The position numbers were made by a program, and so were the translations under genes. A stretch of DNA of 6,925 nt from a virus. Its lineage: Duplodnaviria > Heunggongvirae > Uroviricota > Caudoviricetes. Location of the stretch: IMG/VR virus record IMGVR_UViG_2713896900_000005, positions 1 through 6,925 of that record. The stretch is one strand, 5' to 3'. The first letter of the stretch is position 1, and every line of letters starts with the position of its first letter. The notes under the pieces were generated by a model, which was given only the letters and a program-made list of their open reading frames with translations, was not told where the DNA came from and searched no databases. Below, one piece after another: positions 1 to 6,548 of this stretch.

Positions 1-70
1 GTACAGTTTTGTATCGGCTTACCTGCACCATCTTTCAGTACACCTGAAATCTGTACTGCCATACTCACTC

Positions 71-101
71 CACAAATAAAAAAGGCGCCATTTCTGGCGC
101 C
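71..101 (-). terminator. Rho-independent terminator downstream of J
   Basis: Perfect GC-rich inverted repeat GGCGCCA / TGGCGCC (84-90 and 95-101) with a 4-nt loop (TTTC). Read on the minus strand it is followed immediately by a T-run (plus-strand aaataaaaaa at 74-83 gives TTTTTTATTT). It lies about 20 nt downstream of the J stop codon (122-124). On the plus strand there is no U-tract after the stem, so it looks unidirectional. Confidence 0.75.
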
Positions 102-121
102 CGTTACGGGTTATAAATATT

Positions 122-3100
122 TCAACGGATACTGATGCCGGAAGCCGCTTTTTTGGTCACAATCACCGTACAGTCGGTGATATTGCCTGCCCCCTGATTC
201 CCTTTCTGGAAAATCTTAAACTCCAGAGTGACGCTTCCCCTGCCACCCAGCATATCAATAACCGCACTGTAACTACCGGGAATGGCCCCTTTAGTTTCTC
301 TGGATGCGATTAATACGCCGTTTTTGCGAACTTCAAAACCATAACCCGTGTATCGCGTGCCTCCGGGGTTATTTCCGCTCCCCGGATCGGTATACGCTAT
401 ACCGTTAAAAATAATGGGCGGAATAATAATCTGACGGTCAAAGTTATGATCATCGCTGATGGTGACTGTAACCGTCCCGTCTGGCGTTTCCGTGTTACCC
501 CACGTACCGACTTTTTTCGGGAAGGCTTTTGATACAGCTTTAACGAAATCCCCTCTGACCTGGGTCGCCTCCAGCATGCCCTTAATCGTACAGTTCTCAC
601 TTATCGTGACATTGTTGAGCGTCCCGGAGTTCGCATTCACGTTACCGCTGATATCAGCGTTTTTCGCCGTCAGCCGCCCGTCCGGTGTCAGGGAAAATGC
701 CGGAGGATTGCCGCCGCTGGTGATGGTCGGGGCCGTCAGACGCTTCAGGAACACGTCGTTCATGAATATCTGATCGCTCTGACCAACAAACATTGGTCGT
801 GTGTTGCCATTAGACGGATCAATAAACGCAATACGGTTAGCGGCGACAAGAAACTGGCTCAGCTTGCCTTCCTCCGTGTCCTCCATACTGAGGCCAATAC
901 CCGCGACATAATGTTTGCCGTCTTTGGTCTGCTCAATTTTGACGCCCCACATGGCATTCCACTTATCGTTGGCGTCCTGCCACTCTTTCGAAAACTCCTC
1001 CAGTTTGCTGGCGTTATCCTCCGTCAGCTCGACTTTTTCCAGCAACTCCTTGCCGAGATGGGATTCGGTTATCTTTCCTTTGAAAAAATCCAGGTAACCT
1101 TCCGCATCATCGCTCGCCCGACCGACGGCCTCCACGAACACCGATTTGCCAACGGTGTTCACACTGCGGATATAAAAGTAATAATCATGGCCCGGTTTGA
1201 TATTGATACTGGCGGCTATCCAGTACATCCCCGTACCAAGATAGCGGGCTGTGGTTTCAACCTGCCGGATATCGGCAATCCGCTTTTCCGAAAACCAGAA
1301 CTCAAACTGTACCGTCGGGTCATAAACCGCAAGATGCGGCGTGGCGGTTATCTGAAAATAACCCGGCGTCAGCTCAATCTGTGACGGCGCTGCCGGTGCG
1401 GCAATCCTGAACGATACCGACGCCGGGTCACCCTGCTGTCCCCACGCATTTACCGCCCGGACTGTCAGCCTGTAGTTCCCCGGCGCCAGTTGCCTGAAAC
1501 GATATTCGGTTTCCGTCGTCCGGGCCGTGCTGACCAGCCGCTCACTGCCGTCATCCGCTGCCACGGTCAGGCGAAGCATAAAGCTCACGCCCTTCACCAC
1601 CTTCGGCGTGTCCCATCGCGCCAGCACCTGATATTCCCCGCTGTCTGCCGAGACTTCGGCGGTCAGGTGCTGCACTGCTGGCGGCGTGACACCATTCACC
1701 GTGCCGCTCTGGTCGCCGTCAAAGTGCGCCCCGTTATCCACGATGGCCTCTTTTTCCGGTACATGCTGCACGGCGGTGATGGCATACGTGCCGTCGTCGT
1801 TCTCACGGATACTCACGCAGCGGAACAGGCGCTGGCGCAGCGTCGGCAGCTTCAGCCCCCACACGCTGTATTCGGCAACGCCGTCAGGGACCCGACTCAC
1901 TTTCACCTGCACGCCATCGGTGACAGACTGAACCTCCACGCTGACCGGATTGCCGCTTCCGTCAACCAGGCTTATCAGCGTGGTACCGGAGGCTGGCAGC
2001 ATGATTTCACGGTCGAGCGTCAGCGTCCGGGTCTGGCTGTTCACCGCAAGCACGCGCCCGCCGGTGCTGATACCGGCATAGTCATCATCGCAGATTTCAA
2101 TGACATCGCCCGGTACATGGCGAAGCCCTTCTGCGCCCACGCTGAAGTCCACGGTCTGCGTTTCCAGCAGTTCTGTTTTAATCAGCCACAGCCCGGCTCG
2201 GTGTGCCTGCCCCCGGCTGGTACAGCCAAAGGCATCCATCTTCGTGACGTTACGACCGTAACGGGCAATGGCCTGCGTGTCCTCCACAAGCTCTGTTGCC
2301 GTCTCCCAGCCGTTGTCCGGGTCAATCCAGTTCACCTCAACGGCATTATGGCGGTCCTTCAGGGCGCTGAAGCTGTAGCGGAACGGCGCGCCATCATCCG
2401 GCATCACCACATTACTGCGGTTATAGGTCCACACCTTATCCGATGGCCGGTCCTGCACGAACGTCAGCGTCTGCCCGTTCCATACCGGCATACAGCGCAT
2501 CGCCGAGCAGAAATCACTGAGCACATCCCACGCCCGGCGCTGCGTGGTCAGGTACGCATTACAGGTGATGCGCGGCTCCGTGCCACCAGAGCCATCCGGT
2601 ACCGACTGGTCGCAGTACCGACCGATGGCATACAACGCCCATTTATCCACATCCGCTGCACCAAGACGTTTCCCCATGCCGTAGCGCGGGTGGGTCAGCA
2701 TGTCCCACAGACACCAGGCCATGTTGTCGCTGTACGCTGGCTTGAACGTTCCGTCCCAGATACCGCTGTATTGCCTCGTCTGCGGGTTATAGTTCGACGG
2801 CACCTGCAGAATGCGCCCGCGAAGATGATAATTACGGCTCACCTGCTGACTGCCGAACTGTTCCGAGTCCACCTGCACGCCGACCAGTGCCGTGTTCGGG
2901 TAGCACTGTTGCACATCGATGATTTCGGTGTATGACGACCAGAGCGTTTTGTTCTGCAGCTGGTCTGTGGTGCTGTCCGGCGTCATCCTGCGCATCCGGA
3001 TATTAAACGGGCGCGGCGGCAGGTTACCCACCACCACCGAGGCCAGATACTGCGAGGTGGTTTTGCCCTTAATGGTGATGTCTTTTTCCGTCACCCAGCC

Positions 3101-3535
3101 ACCATTACGTTGTATCTGAACCAGCAGGCGAACTTCCGACGGATTCCGGTCCCCCTTTGAAGTGGTTTCCACCAGTGCCTGCACACCGAAGGTAAAGCGC
3201 AGACGGTCGATGTTTGCCGATGTGATGGTCCGGGTAATCGGCGTGTCGTACTTCACCTCCGTACCCAGCACCGTCTCGGAGCCGGAGGATTCAAATCCCT
3301 CCGGCGGTGTCTGCTCCTGCTCACCTGCCCGGAACACCACCGTGACACCGGAGATATTGGTATTCCCCTCACTGTCCAGCACTGGCGTACTGTTCAGCAG
3401 CACACTTTTCAATCCATCCACCGGACCTTCAATCGGCCCTTCACTGATGGCATCGAGCACACTCAGCAACTGCGTGGATTTCAGGTTGTCCTTCGCTTCG
3501 CGCGGGGTATGCCCCTTACTGCCACCTTTACCCAT
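122..3535 (-). CDS. J: Phage tail tip host-specificity protein J (central tail fiber), 1137 aa
   Basis: Single 3414-nt ORF. The translation is recognisably collinear with lambda gpJ over most of its length (N-terminus [24 protein letters not shown]..., internal motifs such as [39 protein letters not shown] and [15 protein letters not shown]). Length is close to lambda J (1132 aa as I recall). It sits after H-M-L-K-I as in lambda. The last ~150 residues look diverged (see findings). Confidence 0.95.
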
Positions 3536-3668
3536 AGATAATTCCCGAAACAGTAATCAATTTTATGCGAACCATATAACGACCGCTTGCAACAAAAATG
3601 CATCTGTTGTATTTCATTTGTTAAAACTTAAATCACCTTGATTAACAACACGAAATGACGGGGTATTT
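3536..3668 (+). promoter_or_regulatory. AT-rich intergenic region upstream of sodC; probable site of the sodC promoter and RBS (also holds the J translation initiation region on the minus strand)
   Basis: A 133-bp AT-rich non-coding spacer between the divergent starts of J (minus, ATG at 3535) and sodC (plus, ATG at 3669). A weak purine/G-rich stretch (gacgggg, 3657-3663) lies 5 nt upstream of the sodC ATG. Possible -35-like hexamers (TTGCAA 3587-3592, TTGTTA 3618-3623) have no convincing -10 partner at 16-18 bp, so no specific promoter is called. Confidence 0.3.
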
Positions 3669-4190
3669 ATGATAAAAAAAATACTTGCTGTAACTGCGCT
3701 ACTTAGTGGAGCCGTAATGGCTGATACAATGACGATCCCTGTAAATCTCGTTTCCTCAGAAGGAGTAGGGGAAAATCTAGGGGAAATAACTATTTCAGAA
3801 ACCAGCTACGGATTGCTGTTCACTCCTCATCTGAAAGAACTGCCACCAGGGTTACATGGCTTTCATATCCATGAAAATGCCAGTTGTAATCCCGGTCTGA
3901 TTAATGGAAAAAAAGTGCCAGCTCTTGCTGCCGGTGGGCATTATGATCCTGAACAAACAAATAAACATCTTGGGCCGTACAATCCGGAGGGCCATCTGGG
4001 TGATCTACCAGCACTCTATGTCAACTCAGAAGGAAATGCAGAAAACCCGGTTCTGAGTCCAAAAATAAAAAAAATAAGCCAGATAAAAGAACGGGCGATC
4101 ATGATTCATGCCGGAGGGGATAATCATTCCGATTCACCTGCTCCTCTGGGGGGTGGTGGCGCAAGACTGGCATGCGGAATAATTAAATAA
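3669..4190 (+). CDS. sodC: Periplasmic copper/zinc superoxide dismutase, 173 aa, phage moron
   Basis: The translation has an N-terminal signal peptide (MIKKILAVTALLSGAVMA, predicted cleavage before DTM) and the hallmark bacterial Cu,Zn-SOD motifs: metal-ligand histidines in GFHIHE, GGHYDP, HLGDLP, IHAGGDNHSD, and the C-terminal GGGGARLACGII with the disulfide cysteine. It matches E. coli chromosomal SodC in length (173 aa) and motif order but not in sequence identity. The gene is on the opposite strand to all flanking tail genes and is visibly more AT-rich (about 38% GC in the first 60 nt by hand count, against about 58% in a J sample). Confidence 0.93.
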   Translation: MIKKILAVTALLSGAVMADTMTIPVNLVSSEGVGENLGEITISETSYGLLFTPHLKELPPGLHGFHIHENASCNPGLINGKKVPALAAGGHYDPEQTNKHLGPYNPEGHLGDLPALYVNSEGNAENPVLSPKIKKISQIKERAIMIHAGGDNHSDSPAPLGGGGARLACGIIK

Positions 4191-4205
4191 CAAACAGCCT
4201 AAAGC

Positions 4206-4231
4206 AATCACCGTCATAGCTGGCGGTGATT
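4206..4231. terminator. Candidate weak hairpin between convergent sodC and I
   Basis: Inverted repeat AATCACCG (4206-4213) / CGGTGATT (4224-4231) with a 10-nt loop. It lies 16 nt after the sodC stop (4188-4190) and directly abuts the I stop codon (4233-4235, minus strand). There is no clean U-tract on either strand, so if functional it is at best a weak or leaky terminator. Confidence 0.3.
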
Positions 4232-4232
4232 A

Positions 4233-4874
4233 TCAGCGACCAATAACCACAACCTGACCACCATCCCCCTCGTCTGCCGTGCTGATCTCCTGAGAGACCA
4301 CACGTGACCCCACGCGCATTTCACCGTACAGAACAGGCAGAACATTGCCCTGGGCAACCATGTTGTCCAGTGACGAGAAATACGTGTTCTGCTTACCGTT
4401 ATTCGTTGTCTGTGTTCGGGGAGTTTTGGGTCTGGGGGCCAGCATCTGTGCCACACCGCCAAGCGTCATACTGGCACCGAGAGAAAACAGCAGATTACTT
4501 GCCATAATTCCCACCCCAGGCATCCATATAGCAACCGCCATAACAGCTGCGCCCAGCACGGCCTGAAACACGCCGCCACTTTTGGCTCCCGCCAGGCGCG
4601 GCACAATATGGATCACGGCACCATTTGCCAGCGGTTCATTAAGACGGGCTGATAATTCAGTTTCACCTGTATCACGCCCGGCAATGCGTACCTGATACCA
4701 GCCGTCGCTCAGTTTCTGACGAAACGCCGGGAGCTGTGTGGCCAGTGCCCGGATGGCTTCAGCCCCCGTTTTCACACGAAGGTCGATGCGGCGGCCAAAT
4801 CGTTGTAAATCCCCGTAAAGGCAGATGCGTGCCATGCCCGGTGACGCCAGAGGGAGTGTGTGCGTCGCTGCCAT
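4233..4874 (-). CDS. I: Phage tail tip assembly protein I, 213 aa
   Basis: ORF immediately downstream of K and overlapping it by 103 nt in a different frame, which is the K/I overlap length I recall for lambda. It contains a hydrophobic, glycine-rich segment (VFQAVLGAAVMAVAIWMPGVGIMASNLLFSLGASMTLGGVAQMLA) typical of gpI-family proteins. It is about 10 residues shorter than lambda gpI as I recall it (223 aa). Confidence 0.88.
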   Translation of the reverse strand: MAATHTLPLASPGMARICLYGDLQRFGRRIDLRVKTGAEAIRALATQLPAFRQKLSDGWYQVRIAGRDTGETELSARLNEPLANGAVIHIVPRLAGAKSGGVFQAVLGAAVMAVAIWMPGVGIMASNLLFSLGASMTLGGVAQMLAPRPKTPRTQTTNNGKQNTYFSSLDNMVAQGNVLPVLYGEMRVGSRVVSQEISTADEGDGGQVVVIGR

Positions 4875-5515
4875 TTGTCGGTATACCTCTCTCGTTTGCT
4901 CAGTTGTTCAGGAATATGGTGCAGCAGCTCGCCGTCACCACAGTAAATGGCGGCATGATTCGGCACCGATGAACCAAAACAGCACAGCAGCACATCACCC
5001 GGTTGTGCTGATGACAACGGCACCTGATACAGCCCTGTGGCCTCCAGATTATCCAGATAGAGATTCTGGCCGTTACGCCACCAGTCATCCTCACGATGAA
5101 AATCCGGCATCTCAATCCCCGCCAGATGATAAGCATCCCGGAACAGCGTGTAACAATCTGTCACCCCGTGCTCAAAGTGCCGCCCGGTGAGATGCGGCAC
5201 ACAGCGGAATTTATGAATCTCACCCCGGCAGACCAGCCACCACGGCAAATCACTCTGCACCTGCATCCGCCGGTCGGCCTCACTCAGCCAGGGCAGACCA
5301 CCGGGGTGGCTGTGGACCAGCGCCACAATCTCACCCTGCATCTCTGCCTGCAGCCAGTCTTCCGGCGACATACGGAAATACGCCTCCGGCTCACCGGAGA
5401 TATTCACGCAGGGGAAATATCTTTCCCCCTCCGGCGTGCTTACCACGAAGCCGCACGACTCCGCTGGCGCACATCGCCGGGCGTGCGCCAGAATCGCTGA
5501 TTCTGTCTCTGTCAT
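4772..5515 (-). CDS. K: Phage tail tip assembly protein K, 247 aa as the longest ORF, with an N-terminal JAMM/MPN metalloprotease-like domain and a C-terminal NlpC/P60 cysteine-peptidase-like domain
   Basis: JAMM motif read directly from the translation: E19 in AESCGF (E-x-x-G), then H68-S-H70-x7-S78-x2-D81 (HSHPGGLPWLSEAD). NlpC/P60-like catalytic candidates: C121 (GVTDCYTLF), H187 (VPNHAAIY), H199/H200. Position after L and overlapping I matches lambda. The classical 199-aa lambda K would correspond to initiation at internal Met49 (ATG at 5369-5371), which has a GGAGG 11 nt upstream; the long ORF starts 5 nt after the L stop. Confidence 0.9.
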   Translation of the reverse strand: MTETESAILAHARRCAPAESCGFVVSTPEGERYFPCVNISGEPEAYFRMSPEDWLQAEMQGEIVALVHSHPGGLPWLSEADRRMQVQSDLPWWLVCRGEIHKFRCVPHLTGRHFEHGVTDCYTLFRDAYHLAGIEMPDFHREDDWWRNGQNLYLDNLEATGLYQVPLSSAQPGDVLLCCFGSSVPNHAAIYCGDGELLHHIPEQLSKRERYTDKWQRRTHSLWRHRAWHASAFTGIYNDLAAASTFV

Positions 5516-5520
5516 GGGAT

Positions 5521-6219
5521 TTACTGCGAAAGTTTGTTAATGGAAAGGAAGCCGCCAAAGTTGCCGACGTTATTGCGAAACTTACAGCCACTCAGGCATT
5601 TGCTGCATTTATCCTTCGTGATATCGGACGTTGGCTGGTCATATTCATCCGCGACCGCCGGACCGTGATAACCGCACTCATCGCCGCGATAGGTCCAGGT
5701 GCAGGTGTTGGCCAGCATGATACGTCCCGGAAAAACAGCGCCATCCGTTTCCGTCGGCGTGGACAGTACAAAGGAGGCACTCACCGCGCTCAGTTCGCTG
5801 CACTGCTCGATGCGCCAGCGGCTGATCACCTCCTGCTCCGGGTCTGCCTCGATGTTTCCGTTGACGAAGTTCACCGCATCCAGAAAACGGGCGTAAACCT
5901 TACGCCGGACCACCGTTCCGCCGACCAGACTCTGCATATCTTCCACCATGCCGGTGACCATACCGTACAGGTTAGAAACCGTCAGCGTGGGGCGCGTACT
6001 GGTGCCTTTGCCATTCAGTTCAAAACCACTCCCCTGAATGGGATACGGCTGATACTGTCGCCCCTGCCAGGTGACCGGCTCACCTTTTTCGTTCTGCTCA
6101 TTGCAGAAAAAATAACGTTCTCCACCGACCTCTGTCAGGTCGATTTCCCAGAGCACCACGCTGGCCGACTGCTCCGCACGGGTGCATTCATTCAGTGTTT
6201 CCTGCCGGATATCCTGCAT
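5521..6219 (-). CDS. L: Phage minor tail protein L, 232 aa
   Basis: Exactly the length of lambda gpL (232 aa). Its start codon overlaps the M stop (TGATG on the minus strand at 6217-6221). There is a C-terminal cysteine cluster (C173, C182, C205, C208, C212; CTWTYRGDECGYHG...CSKCLSGCKF) consistent with the iron-sulfur cluster reported for gpL. Confidence 0.93.
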   Translation of the reverse strand: MQDIRQETLNECTRAEQSASVVLWEIDLTEVGGERYFFCNEQNEKGEPVTWQGRQYQPYPIQGSGFELNGKGTSTRPTLTVSNLYGMVTGMVEDMQSLVGGTVVRRKVYARFLDAVNFVNGNIEADPEQEVISRWRIEQCSELSAVSASFVLSTPTETDGAVFPGRIMLANTCTWTYRGDECGYHGPAVADEYDQPTSDITKDKCSKCLSGCKFRNNVGNFGGFLSINKLSQ

Positions 6220-6548
6220 CAGTTCACCACCTGTTCAAACTCTGCGCTGAACTCAACACGCAGCATACTGACCCGCGACGACCATTTTGCGCAGGTCACC
6301 TTTATCTGTCGCCACTCATAAGGCGGCGTCCACAGAAAGGCTTTCCAGCCCCCGTGCTCAGCCAGAAACGACTCCAGTACCGTGGCCTCCTCACGGGGGA
6401 CAGAAAGCGTCACGCTGTACGTTTTCAGGTTGGCATTCAGCCCGGCAGGCGCTCGCTGGGAATAGCCATCACCAAAGCGCACCTTTCTTACAGAAGGGAC
6501 CGAAGCCACATCCATACCGGGTTTCACTTTCCAGCGGAAGGTTTTCAT
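6219..6548 (-). CDS. M: Phage minor tail protein M, 109 aa
   Basis: Exactly the length of lambda gpM (109 aa). Its start overlaps the H stop (ATGA on the minus strand at 6545-6548). Position between H and L as in lambda. Confidence 0.9.
   Translation of the reverse strand: MKTFRWKVKPGMDVASVPSVRKVRFGDGYSQRAPAGLNANLKTYSVTLSVPREEATVLESFLAEHGGWKAFLWTPPYEWRQIKVTCAKWSSRVSMLRVEFSAEFEQVVN

Follow-up and report, generated by a model that had tools for sequence, protein, structure and literature searches.

A Cu,Zn superoxide dismutase gene between tail genes I and J of a lambda-like Escherichia albertii prophage: probable lysogenic-conversion cargo in a known slot

Introduction

The gene sodC, which encodes a Cu,Zn superoxide dismutase (SOD), is carried by several lambda-like prophages; in Salmonella and in enterohaemorrhagic Escherichia coli (EHEC), the contribution of such prophage-borne SodC to fitness and virulence is well established. 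This report deals with one such gene, located between the tail genes I and J in 6,925 nucleotides (nt) of phage DNA. The whole of this stretch, called the window throughout, is the entire contig BBVK01000042.1 (GCA_001514685.1) of Escherichia albertii, an emerging attaching-effacing pathogen. As argued below, the gene and its non-coding flanks very probably form a lysogenic-conversion cassette, i.e., a moron, in a lambda-like prophage, whose product would serve the fitness of the bacterial host.

The closest described arrangement is that of sodCIII (STM0924) in the prophage Fels-1 of Salmonella Typhimurium LT2, where the lambda-like tail-tip operon has the same architecture as the window, namely J on the minus strand, sodC on the plus strand, and I on the minus strand. 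Likewise, the genes for SodC-F1 and SodC-F2 of EHEC, found in prophages of the CP-933R/V and Sp4/Sp10 type and also in Shiga toxin 2a (Stx2a) phages, occupy the same I-J slot in antisense orientation, with a 133-nt upstream spacer. In addition, sodCI (STM1044) of Gifsy-2 is also prophage-borne and antisense inside a lambda-like tail operon. More generally, the lom and bor genes of lambda, which are morons of the Hendrix type, represent the same concept: an extra gene of the late region, present or absent among relatives, and of odd composition.

Regarding function, the part of the EHEC study drawn on here describes the SodC-F proteins as periplasmic dimers that surpass chromosomal SodC in activity and stability; they were detected in growing and in starved cultures and, unlike the RpoS-controlled chromosomal enzyme, SodC-F1/F2 were detectable in log phase and in anaerobic culture, and a lacZ fusion with 299 bp upstream of sodC-F was constructed for that work (PMC2569942). 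In Gifsy-2 lysogens, sodCI exceeds 100 transcripts per million while the lytic genes are silent (PMC7067206).

Because a gene of this kind occupies this slot in Fels-1 and in the E. coli O157-type prophages as well, the feature in the window is real but ordinary, and the I-J position of sodC is already known, not new. An earlier note on this DNA, made from its letters only, had rightly placed the gene in a known class of prophage-borne SodC, to which the genes of Fels-1, Gifsy-2, and the Stx2a phages belong; it had also thought the exact insertion site worth documenting, and any novelty of the site is overturned by sodCIII of Fels-1 and the EHEC Stx2a-phage sodC, both in this antisense slot.

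The Cassette and Its Boundaries

The cassette lies between two intact tail genes of the minus strand, and its limits follow from theirs: the end of I and the start of J (Table 1) leave an interval of 697 bp, where lambda has a spacer of 60 bp. In the alignment with lambda, nt identity is 93.4% up to the ATG of J (3535) and 91.5% from 4232 on, i.e., from one base before the stop codon of I, and nothing alignable lies between these two points. The empty 60-bp spacer is found at the same place in lambda and in the best-matching E. coli prophages, the flanks of which are 94-96% identical at the nt level; the listed E. coli matches span 364 bp, versus 1001 bp in the window.

The composition of the interval is equally distinct. 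Its GC content is 0.425, versus about 0.57 in the flanks; measured in segments of 200 nt, it is 0.365-0.375 over 3501-3800 and 0.44-0.475 in the open reading frame (ORF), with flanks at 0.56-0.60. The coding sequence (CDS) of sodC has a GC content of 0.444 and only 0.316 at third codon positions (GC3), and the five tail genes M, L, K, I, and J have values of 0.56-0.58 and 0.56-0.68, respectively. The earlier note had described about 700 bp between the I stop (4233) and the J start (3535) in place of a short lambda spacer, an AT-rich Cu,Zn-SOD gene on the opposite strand with its own AT-rich upstream spacer, a strand flip, and a break in composition, and it had expected junctions against lambdoid phages lacking the insert as well as a computed GC discontinuity; the measurements given here and in Table 1 agree with all of these.

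A site that is empty in close relatives and a composition unlike that of the neighboring phage genes are both characteristic of morons, and this is what was found here. Moreover, the protein matches PHROG 1975, annotated as "superoxide dismutase precursor", at 6e-75, and the category of this entry is moron. The 697-bp cassette is 98.7-100% identical across 14 independent loci, some of which are in decaying prophages, and conservation of the cassette while the phage decays is the pattern expected if cargo is kept. On the opposite strand, the cassette brought a new ribosome-binding region for J, which reads CGGGAATTATCT-ATG, versus GGAGCGTGAGGA-ATG in lambda.

Two of the loci may be described separately. 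In CP117556.1 (2173-7867 of locus L005), IS66-family genes (TnpA/TnpB/transposase) abut a shortened J of 1083 amino acids (aa), and in CP030781.2 (8565-13450 of locus L007) the tape-measure gene is split into parts of 691 and 140 aa and the call of I is shorter; at both, the cassette is 99.9-100% identical.

Neither terminal inverted repeats nor target-site duplications were found at the ends of the cassette, and an origin as a transposon or as a miniature inverted-repeat transposable element was set aside on this ground. A 9-nt inverted repeat at 3481-3489 and 4249-4257 was also discarded, being located within the coding sequences of J and I and of a kind that occurs by chance at about 2 pairs per 1 kb.

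Table 1. Coordinates of the sodC cassette, its parts, and the surrounding tail-tip operon genes in the window
Feature	Positions	Strand	Description
Whole sodC cassette	3536-4232	+	697 bp in place of the 60-bp lambda-type I-J spacer
5' non-coding region of sodC	3536-3668	+	133 nt, GC 0.33; presumed promoter/leader; opposite strand is the ribosome-binding region of J
sodC CDS	3669-4190	+	173 aa
Putative signal peptide	3669-3722	+	about aa 1-18 (...AVMA, followed by DTMT)
Mature Cu,Zn-SOD domain		+	aa 19-173
3' stem-loop of the sodC unit	4206-4231	+	11-bp stem, 4-nt loop; abuts the I stop codon; -15.5 kcal/mol, z = -3.6
J	122-3535	-	left flank, tip attachment; Pfam gpJ domain set; start codon intact
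I	4233-4874	-	right flank, tail assembly; Pfam Lambda_tail_I 1.4e-24; 84.5% aa identity to lambda I; stop codon intact
K	4772-5515	-	97% identical to lambda K
L	5521-6219	-	
M	6219-6548	-	
H		-	end of gene; tail-tip operon

The SodC Protein

Judged by family, ligands, and domain, all read from its sequence, the ORF encodes a complete bacterial Cu,Zn SOD of the SodC family. It matches Pfam Sod_Cu (PF00080) with an E value of 1.8e-32 and 113 bits (cutoff 28.9) over profile positions 3-133 of 133, and the NCBIfam equivalog NF007628, "superoxide dismutase [Cu-Zn] SodC", with 212.5 bits (cutoff 165) over positions 5-172 of 172. Among solved structures, the best matches are those of Salmonella SodCI (6d52 and 1eqw, E about 3e-68), aligned without gaps up to query residue 172; the bit score is 232 for dimeric SodCI, versus 197 for SodCII (2k4w) and 191 for E. 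coli SodC (1eso), the last two of which we take to be monomeric forms.

Identity to SodCI and SodCIII of Salmonella is 62-66% over the mature domain. In an alignment of nine sequences, which included SodCI, SodCIII, SodC-F, and other homologues, the columns of H66, H68, H91, H100, H109, D112, and H147 are invariant, so the alignment across the metal-ligand histidines that the earlier note had named as a check is obtained with all ligands kept. From knowledge of the family, H66, H68, and H147 are taken as Cu ligands, H91 as the bridging residue, and H100, H109, and D112 as Zn ligands. C73 is invariant as well, and no full-length sequence is without C169 or R166 (...GGGGARLACGII); C73 and C169 are the cysteines of the intrasubunit disulfide, and R166 is the active-site (catalytic) arginine.

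By inspection, the N-terminus is made of MIKK, the hydrophobic stretch ILAVTALLSGAV, and VMA followed by DTMT, with no lipobox cysteine. The SodCI crystal chains, which are mature, begin aligning at query residue 19-20, i.e., at the end of the putative signal peptide. The N-terminus thus looks like a Sec signal peptide, which would direct the protein to the periplasm.

As for variants of the protein, the homologue from E. coli RN587/1 (P0001, 98% identical) has the C-terminus ...GGGGAQDWHAE, versus ...GGGGARLACGIIK, owing to a frameshift that removes Arg166 and Cys169; this copy may be either inactivated or a product of a sequencing error in the draft.

Signals Upstream and Downstream of sodC

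The upstream region of sodC has a Shine-Dalgarno-like GGGG at 3660-3663 and is otherwise without recognizable kin: 3536-3668 has no match in complete E. coli genomes, and comparison with the corresponding spacers of Fels-1, Stx, and Gifsy-2 returned no blastn matches and global-alignment z scores of at most 2.7 against mononucleotide shuffles. The spacer is 133 nt long in both the window and the Stx type, an agreement that may be coincidence. Since sodCI is under PhoPQ control, a PhoP box was considered; the best match, TGTATTTCATTTGTTAA at 3608-3624, agrees in 9 of 12 positions and was rejected as chance level, because all four upstream regions compared match at 9 of 12 or more.

The downstream end is formed by the stem-loop at 4206-4231. 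This hairpin is kept downstream of two non-phage sodC alleles, P0004 and P0002 (loci L093 and L095), which are 70-72% identical, and one position of its stem is T.G, T-A, and C-G in the three loci. Because of this conservation at non-phage loci, we regard it as part of the sodC unit and not as a remnant of the lambda spacer. The absence of a U-run behind it on the plus strand sets it apart from canonical intrinsic terminators, and transcripts of sodC may run antisense into I. A scan of 3300-4500 against Rfam returned nothing, apart from one match (E 0.18) to a Streptococcus small RNA, far under the gathering score.

Terminator-like sites were also looked for, and 2 were found in the scanned region, versus 0.7 +/- 0.9 expected. 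One (CCGGCAGCAAGAGCTGG + CACTTTTTTT) lies inside sodC at 3934-3918 of the minus strand and has the orientation of the tail operon; it is probably incidental, or else Q-antiterminated transcription reads through it. In lambda, the operon strand of the 60-bp I-J spacer (1637-1696 of locus L001) has a strong hairpin that resembles a terminator (AAACCGCCUGCGGGCGGUUUUGUCAUUU), for which a 71-nt segment gives -23 kcal/mol and z -2.5. In Fels-1 (4857-4905 of locus L002) this lambda spacer hairpin (AAAACCGCC...GGCGGTTT) persists, with sodCIII on one side and J on the other, and the cassette of E. albertii is without it.

The I-J Slot in Other Phages and Genomes

The context of sodC was surveyed in 80 IMG/VR loci together with NCBI loci, classified by tblastn with tail proteins. 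The order J(-), sodC(+), I(-) was found at 47 viral and genomic loci, with three alleles, i.e., the window, Fels-1, and EHEC types; the order L(-), sodC(+), lom or M(-), which comprises the Gifsy-2 type and its variants, at 16 loci; and no lambda-like tail neighbors at 28 loci, where SodC is at most 60% identical. When 50,697 phage records were searched by tblastn, the identities to the SodC of the window were 64% for Fels-1, 62% for Gifsy-2, and 57% for two Stx2a-converting phages. The window-type cassette was sought by megablast and distant blastn; it is absent from the same records at megablast sensitivity, and none was found in 5,426 complete E. coli genomes, the best DNA match being 68% and restricted to the CDS. 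Of these genomes, 547-648 (about 10%) have an I-J cassette of the EHEC type.

A different slot of the operon is used in the lambda-like prophage of E. coli O103:H2 strain 129 (4558-6152 of locus L099), which has an empty I-J spacer and, between K and L, genes for the antirepressor Ant and for two Arc-family repressors; the K-L interval is, in this prophage, another position of the tail-tip operon used for cargo.

Relatives and Origin of the Allele

Outside its own cluster, the nearest relatives of the allele are 70-72% identical in aa and 73-74% in nt, and they are not in tail operons. P0002 (72%) adjoins a fimbrial usher operon; P0004 (70%), from E. coli, has CcdAB, TraD, and a serine protease autotransporter (SPATE) in a plasmid-like context; and the more distant P0011 (62%) adjoins a SPATE autotransporter and insertion sequence (IS) elements. 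For P0004, DNA homology passes the stop codon of sodC and ends exactly at window position 4232, i.e., at the boundary of the cassette. No remnants of I or J were found beside the P0002, P0004, and P0011 loci, and the notion that these non-phage alleles are relics of decayed prophages was rejected on this basis. Among the matches listed from species-representative genomes, which were scanned for a donor, there is no relative above 65% aa identity, the best being from Pseudomonas.

The surroundings of such non-prophage E. coli alleles are mobile in character: at loci L093 and L094, sodC stands beside ccdAB, traD fragments, and a SPATE autotransporter gene, in a plasmid-like setting, and at loci L096-L098 it immediately precedes a 1363-aa SPATE gene, and IS elements are close by. 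This suggests that sodC also moves with virulence-plasmid or island cargo.

The relationships were examined with a bootstrapped neighbor-joining (NJ) tree of 152 columns, 45 taxa, and 200 replicates. The allele of the window groups with P0002, P0003, P0004, and P0007 in 77% of the bootstraps. Exclusive grouping is rare among the I-J alleles, with 7% for all three, 4% for the window and Fels-1 alleles, and 0.5% for the window and Stx alleles. A split between the four phage alleles and the named chromosomal SodCs can be drawn in 67% of the bootstraps, and the deep structure is weak. A midpoint-rooted NJ tree of 129 taxa, in which phage alleles were interleaved with chromosomal ones, was set aside given the weak deep structure of the 45-taxon bootstrap. 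On these sequence comparisons, the window allele is a distinct lineage with its nearest relatives outside phages. When the window was compared with Fels-1 sodCIII and EHEC sodC-F for a common insertion event, the slot and the orientation were shared, and the junctions, the flanks, and the sister position were not; outside the CDS, the window, Fels-1, and Stx cassettes have no blastn similarity to one another. Independent capture of sodC by the I-J alleles is accordingly the likely course, but it is not proven, because the deep structure of the tree is weak.

Proposed Mechanism and Alternative Explanations

According to the model proposed here, which is drawn by analogy, the host would transcribe sodC in the lysogen, where the late operon is silent, starting from the AT-rich region upstream of the gene. 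SodC would then pass into the periplasm, receive Cu and Zn, and dismutate superoxide from outside, produced by the phagocyte oxidative burst or other exogenous sources, with a gain in fitness for the lysogen. The antisense orientation would insulate sodC from Q-dependent late transcription, and during lytic growth the antiterminated late transcript would read across the cassette to J. As to its origin, the unit of sodC plus hairpin was most likely acquired from, or exchanged with, a non-phage source, because the nearest alleles, plasmid-like and fimbrial in context, share the hairpin to the exact end of the cassette and the clade has the bootstrap support given above; it then probably spread among tail modules through homologous recombination, with the conserved sequences of I and J on either side as the sites of exchange.

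Several results weigh against this model. No consensus sigma-70 promoter was found in 3400-4400, where 1.7 are expected by chance; the best relaxed candidate (-35 CTTACT at 3515-3520, 16 nt, -10 GATAAT at 3537-3542) is weak and lies half inside J; no canonical terminator, and no U-run behind the hairpin, was found on the plus strand after sodC; and the library of papers searched has none on E. albertii sodC. Because no consensus promoter was found, expression in lysogeny is argued by analogy. Of the moron signature put forward in the earlier note, the odd composition and the opposite strand stand, as do the empty sites in relatives, and a consensus sigma-70 promoter belonging to the gene was not recovered.

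The history of the slot can be read in two ways. The reading that we favor, although tentatively and at slightly less than even chances, is that the I-J spacer is a recurrent landing pad and that lambda-like tail operons captured sodC more than once, because three non-sister lineages share the antisense slot with unrelated flanks and differing junctions, and the closest kin of the E. albertii cassette are plasmid- or chromosome-borne sodC units with the same 3' hairpin. If so, some mechanistic or selective reason would channel sodC there, for example that a spacer with a hairpin is tolerated or that the gene is insulated from late transcription. The other reading holds that sodC was inserted once, in an ancestor of the lambda-, Fels-1-, and Stx-like modules, with the empty sites as losses and the non-phage relatives as escapes. 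It stays alive because the flanking proteins diverge about as much as SodC itself (57-66% aa identity for SodC, 65-72% for I, and a nearby 66-87% for L, K, and J), and it gains from the slot and antisense orientation common to all three types, from the 133 nt that the window and Stx types both have upstream of sodC, and from the split between the four phage alleles and the named chromosomal SodCs. Yet the noncoding parts of the cassettes are without detectable similarity, the junctions differ, with the lambda hairpin kept in Fels-1 and not in the window, and the tree seldom unites the I-J alleles while it does join the window allele with alleles outside tail operons. Furthermore, lambda, with a K protein almost the same as that of the window, has a clean 60-bp spacer, and the non-phage alleles are without adjoining I or J remnants; all this makes a single ancient insertion unlikely.

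The nature of the gene has rival readings as well, each of them far less probable than carriage for the benefit of the host. That sodC is an ancestral, integral part of the tail operon might be thought from its place inside the operon and from the ribosome-binding region that the cassette supplies to J, but this idea is effectively refuted by the empty sites and deserves almost no credence: the gene is absent from lambda, no site in 4,263 flank-matching complete E. coli genomes covers 80% of the query, its strand is opposite, it has a putative signal peptide, its GC3 is 0.32 against about 0.65, and we know of no virion role for SodC. SOD-like proteins without ligands do exist, as in the YojM type, and the lack of a clear promoter or terminator, the frameshifted C-terminus of the RN587/1 copy, and the degraded state of several host prophages could all be taken to mean that the ORF is a decaying or inactive remnant with no current function; this is very improbable for an allele that has lost none of its seven metal ligands and keeps the arginine and the two cysteines, that scores above a curated equivalog cutoff, and that resides in a cassette conserved at 14 loci, degraded prophages included. 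Equally improbable is that sodC mainly serves the phage, by protecting the infected cell in the lytic phase or through an antisense transcript that modulates I/J, tail assembly, or induction output. A transcript of sodC would indeed run antisense into I for want of a plus-strand terminator, the cassette displaced the native ribosome-binding region of J, and an antisense RNA inside the late genes of BTP1 has a phage-directed function (PMC7067206); the characterized homologues, however, are host fitness or virulence factors expressed from a repressed prophage, and the cassette is retained in prophages no longer able to make tails.

The Tail Operon and Its Neighbors

The remaining genes of the window form a lambda-type tail-tip operon, as judged from the six-frame ORF list and Pfam. 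J is 93-99% identical in aa to lambda J up to about residue 900 and then has a divergent C-terminus. Its last ~140 aa (window 122-530) are 30-36% identical to lambda J, with a GC content of 0.47-0.50, and residues 1001-1136 match the Pfam model of the C-terminal receptor-binding domain, Ig_GpJ_C; this looks like a module swap, which would imply a receptor different from the LamB used by lambda. In the frame of I, a start at 4874 (213 aa) is possible and gives a 103-nt overlap with K exactly like that of lambda, and the public gene calls start at 4835 (200 aa). Downstream of J (window 1-121) there is no lom, which lambda has there. On the minus strand, at about 101-78, a hairpin that resembles a terminator and has a T-run (GGCGCC-AGAAAT-GGCGCC TTTTTT) directly precedes an ORF that starts at 62 (MAVQISGVLKDG...); its product matches Pfam phage_tail_N, and it looks like a tail-fibre gene.

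The exact SodC protein has Escherichia albertii SodC as its source name, and close members of its cluster also come from some E. coli drafts. The complete genomes CP117556.1, CP117620.1, and CP030781.2 have the same protein in the J, sodC, I context, within a full lambda-like head-tail module, and in them J is followed by tail-fibre genes, then NleG, then a gene for a pentapeptide/SopA-type (NleL-like) effector. At 1-2600 of loci L006 and L007, in the same prophage, a T3SS_NleG-family gene and a pentapeptide-repeat plus SopA/SopA_C (NleL-like) gene were seen downstream of the tail-fibre genes.

Significance and Comparison with Known Systems

The E. albertii allele may, by analogy, be regarded as plausible virulence-associated cargo, because the role of SodC is established elsewhere, E. 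albertii is pathogenic, and the prophage has NleG and SopA/NleL-like effector genes; the allele is also a possible marker for its prophage lineage. As a third, separate sodC lineage in the antisense I-J slot, it offers a small example of moron-slot reuse and of the movement of cargo among plasmids, chromosomes, and phages. What is modestly new is the separate lineage of the allele, the position of its nearest relatives (70-72%) outside phages with the same 3' hairpin, and the finding that the three I-J alleles have unrelated noncoding flanks and do not form one group. The only mildly novel angle is that sodC lineages which are not sisters have used the I-J spacer repeatedly, and nothing in it will surprise the specialist.

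Set beside the systems named at the outset, the window stands closest to Fels-1, whose sodCIII is the nearest phage-borne allele (64-66% aa identity); nevertheless, the distance tree places sodCIII in another clade, its noncoding flanks are unrelated, and these measure 145 and 53 nt, versus 133 and 42 nt in the window, with the lambda hairpin retained beside J. The EHEC genes share the slot and the antisense orientation, with 57% aa identity, and differ in having their own terminators in a 190-nt downstream region. The sodCI of Gifsy-2, 62% identical, sits between L and lom/M instead. In contrast with lambda lom, which is co-oriented with the tail operon and downstream of J, sodC of the window is antisense and in the I-J slot. 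Finally, the non-phage alleles P0004 and P0002 share the 3' hairpin with the window and differ from it in lying outside prophage tail operons.

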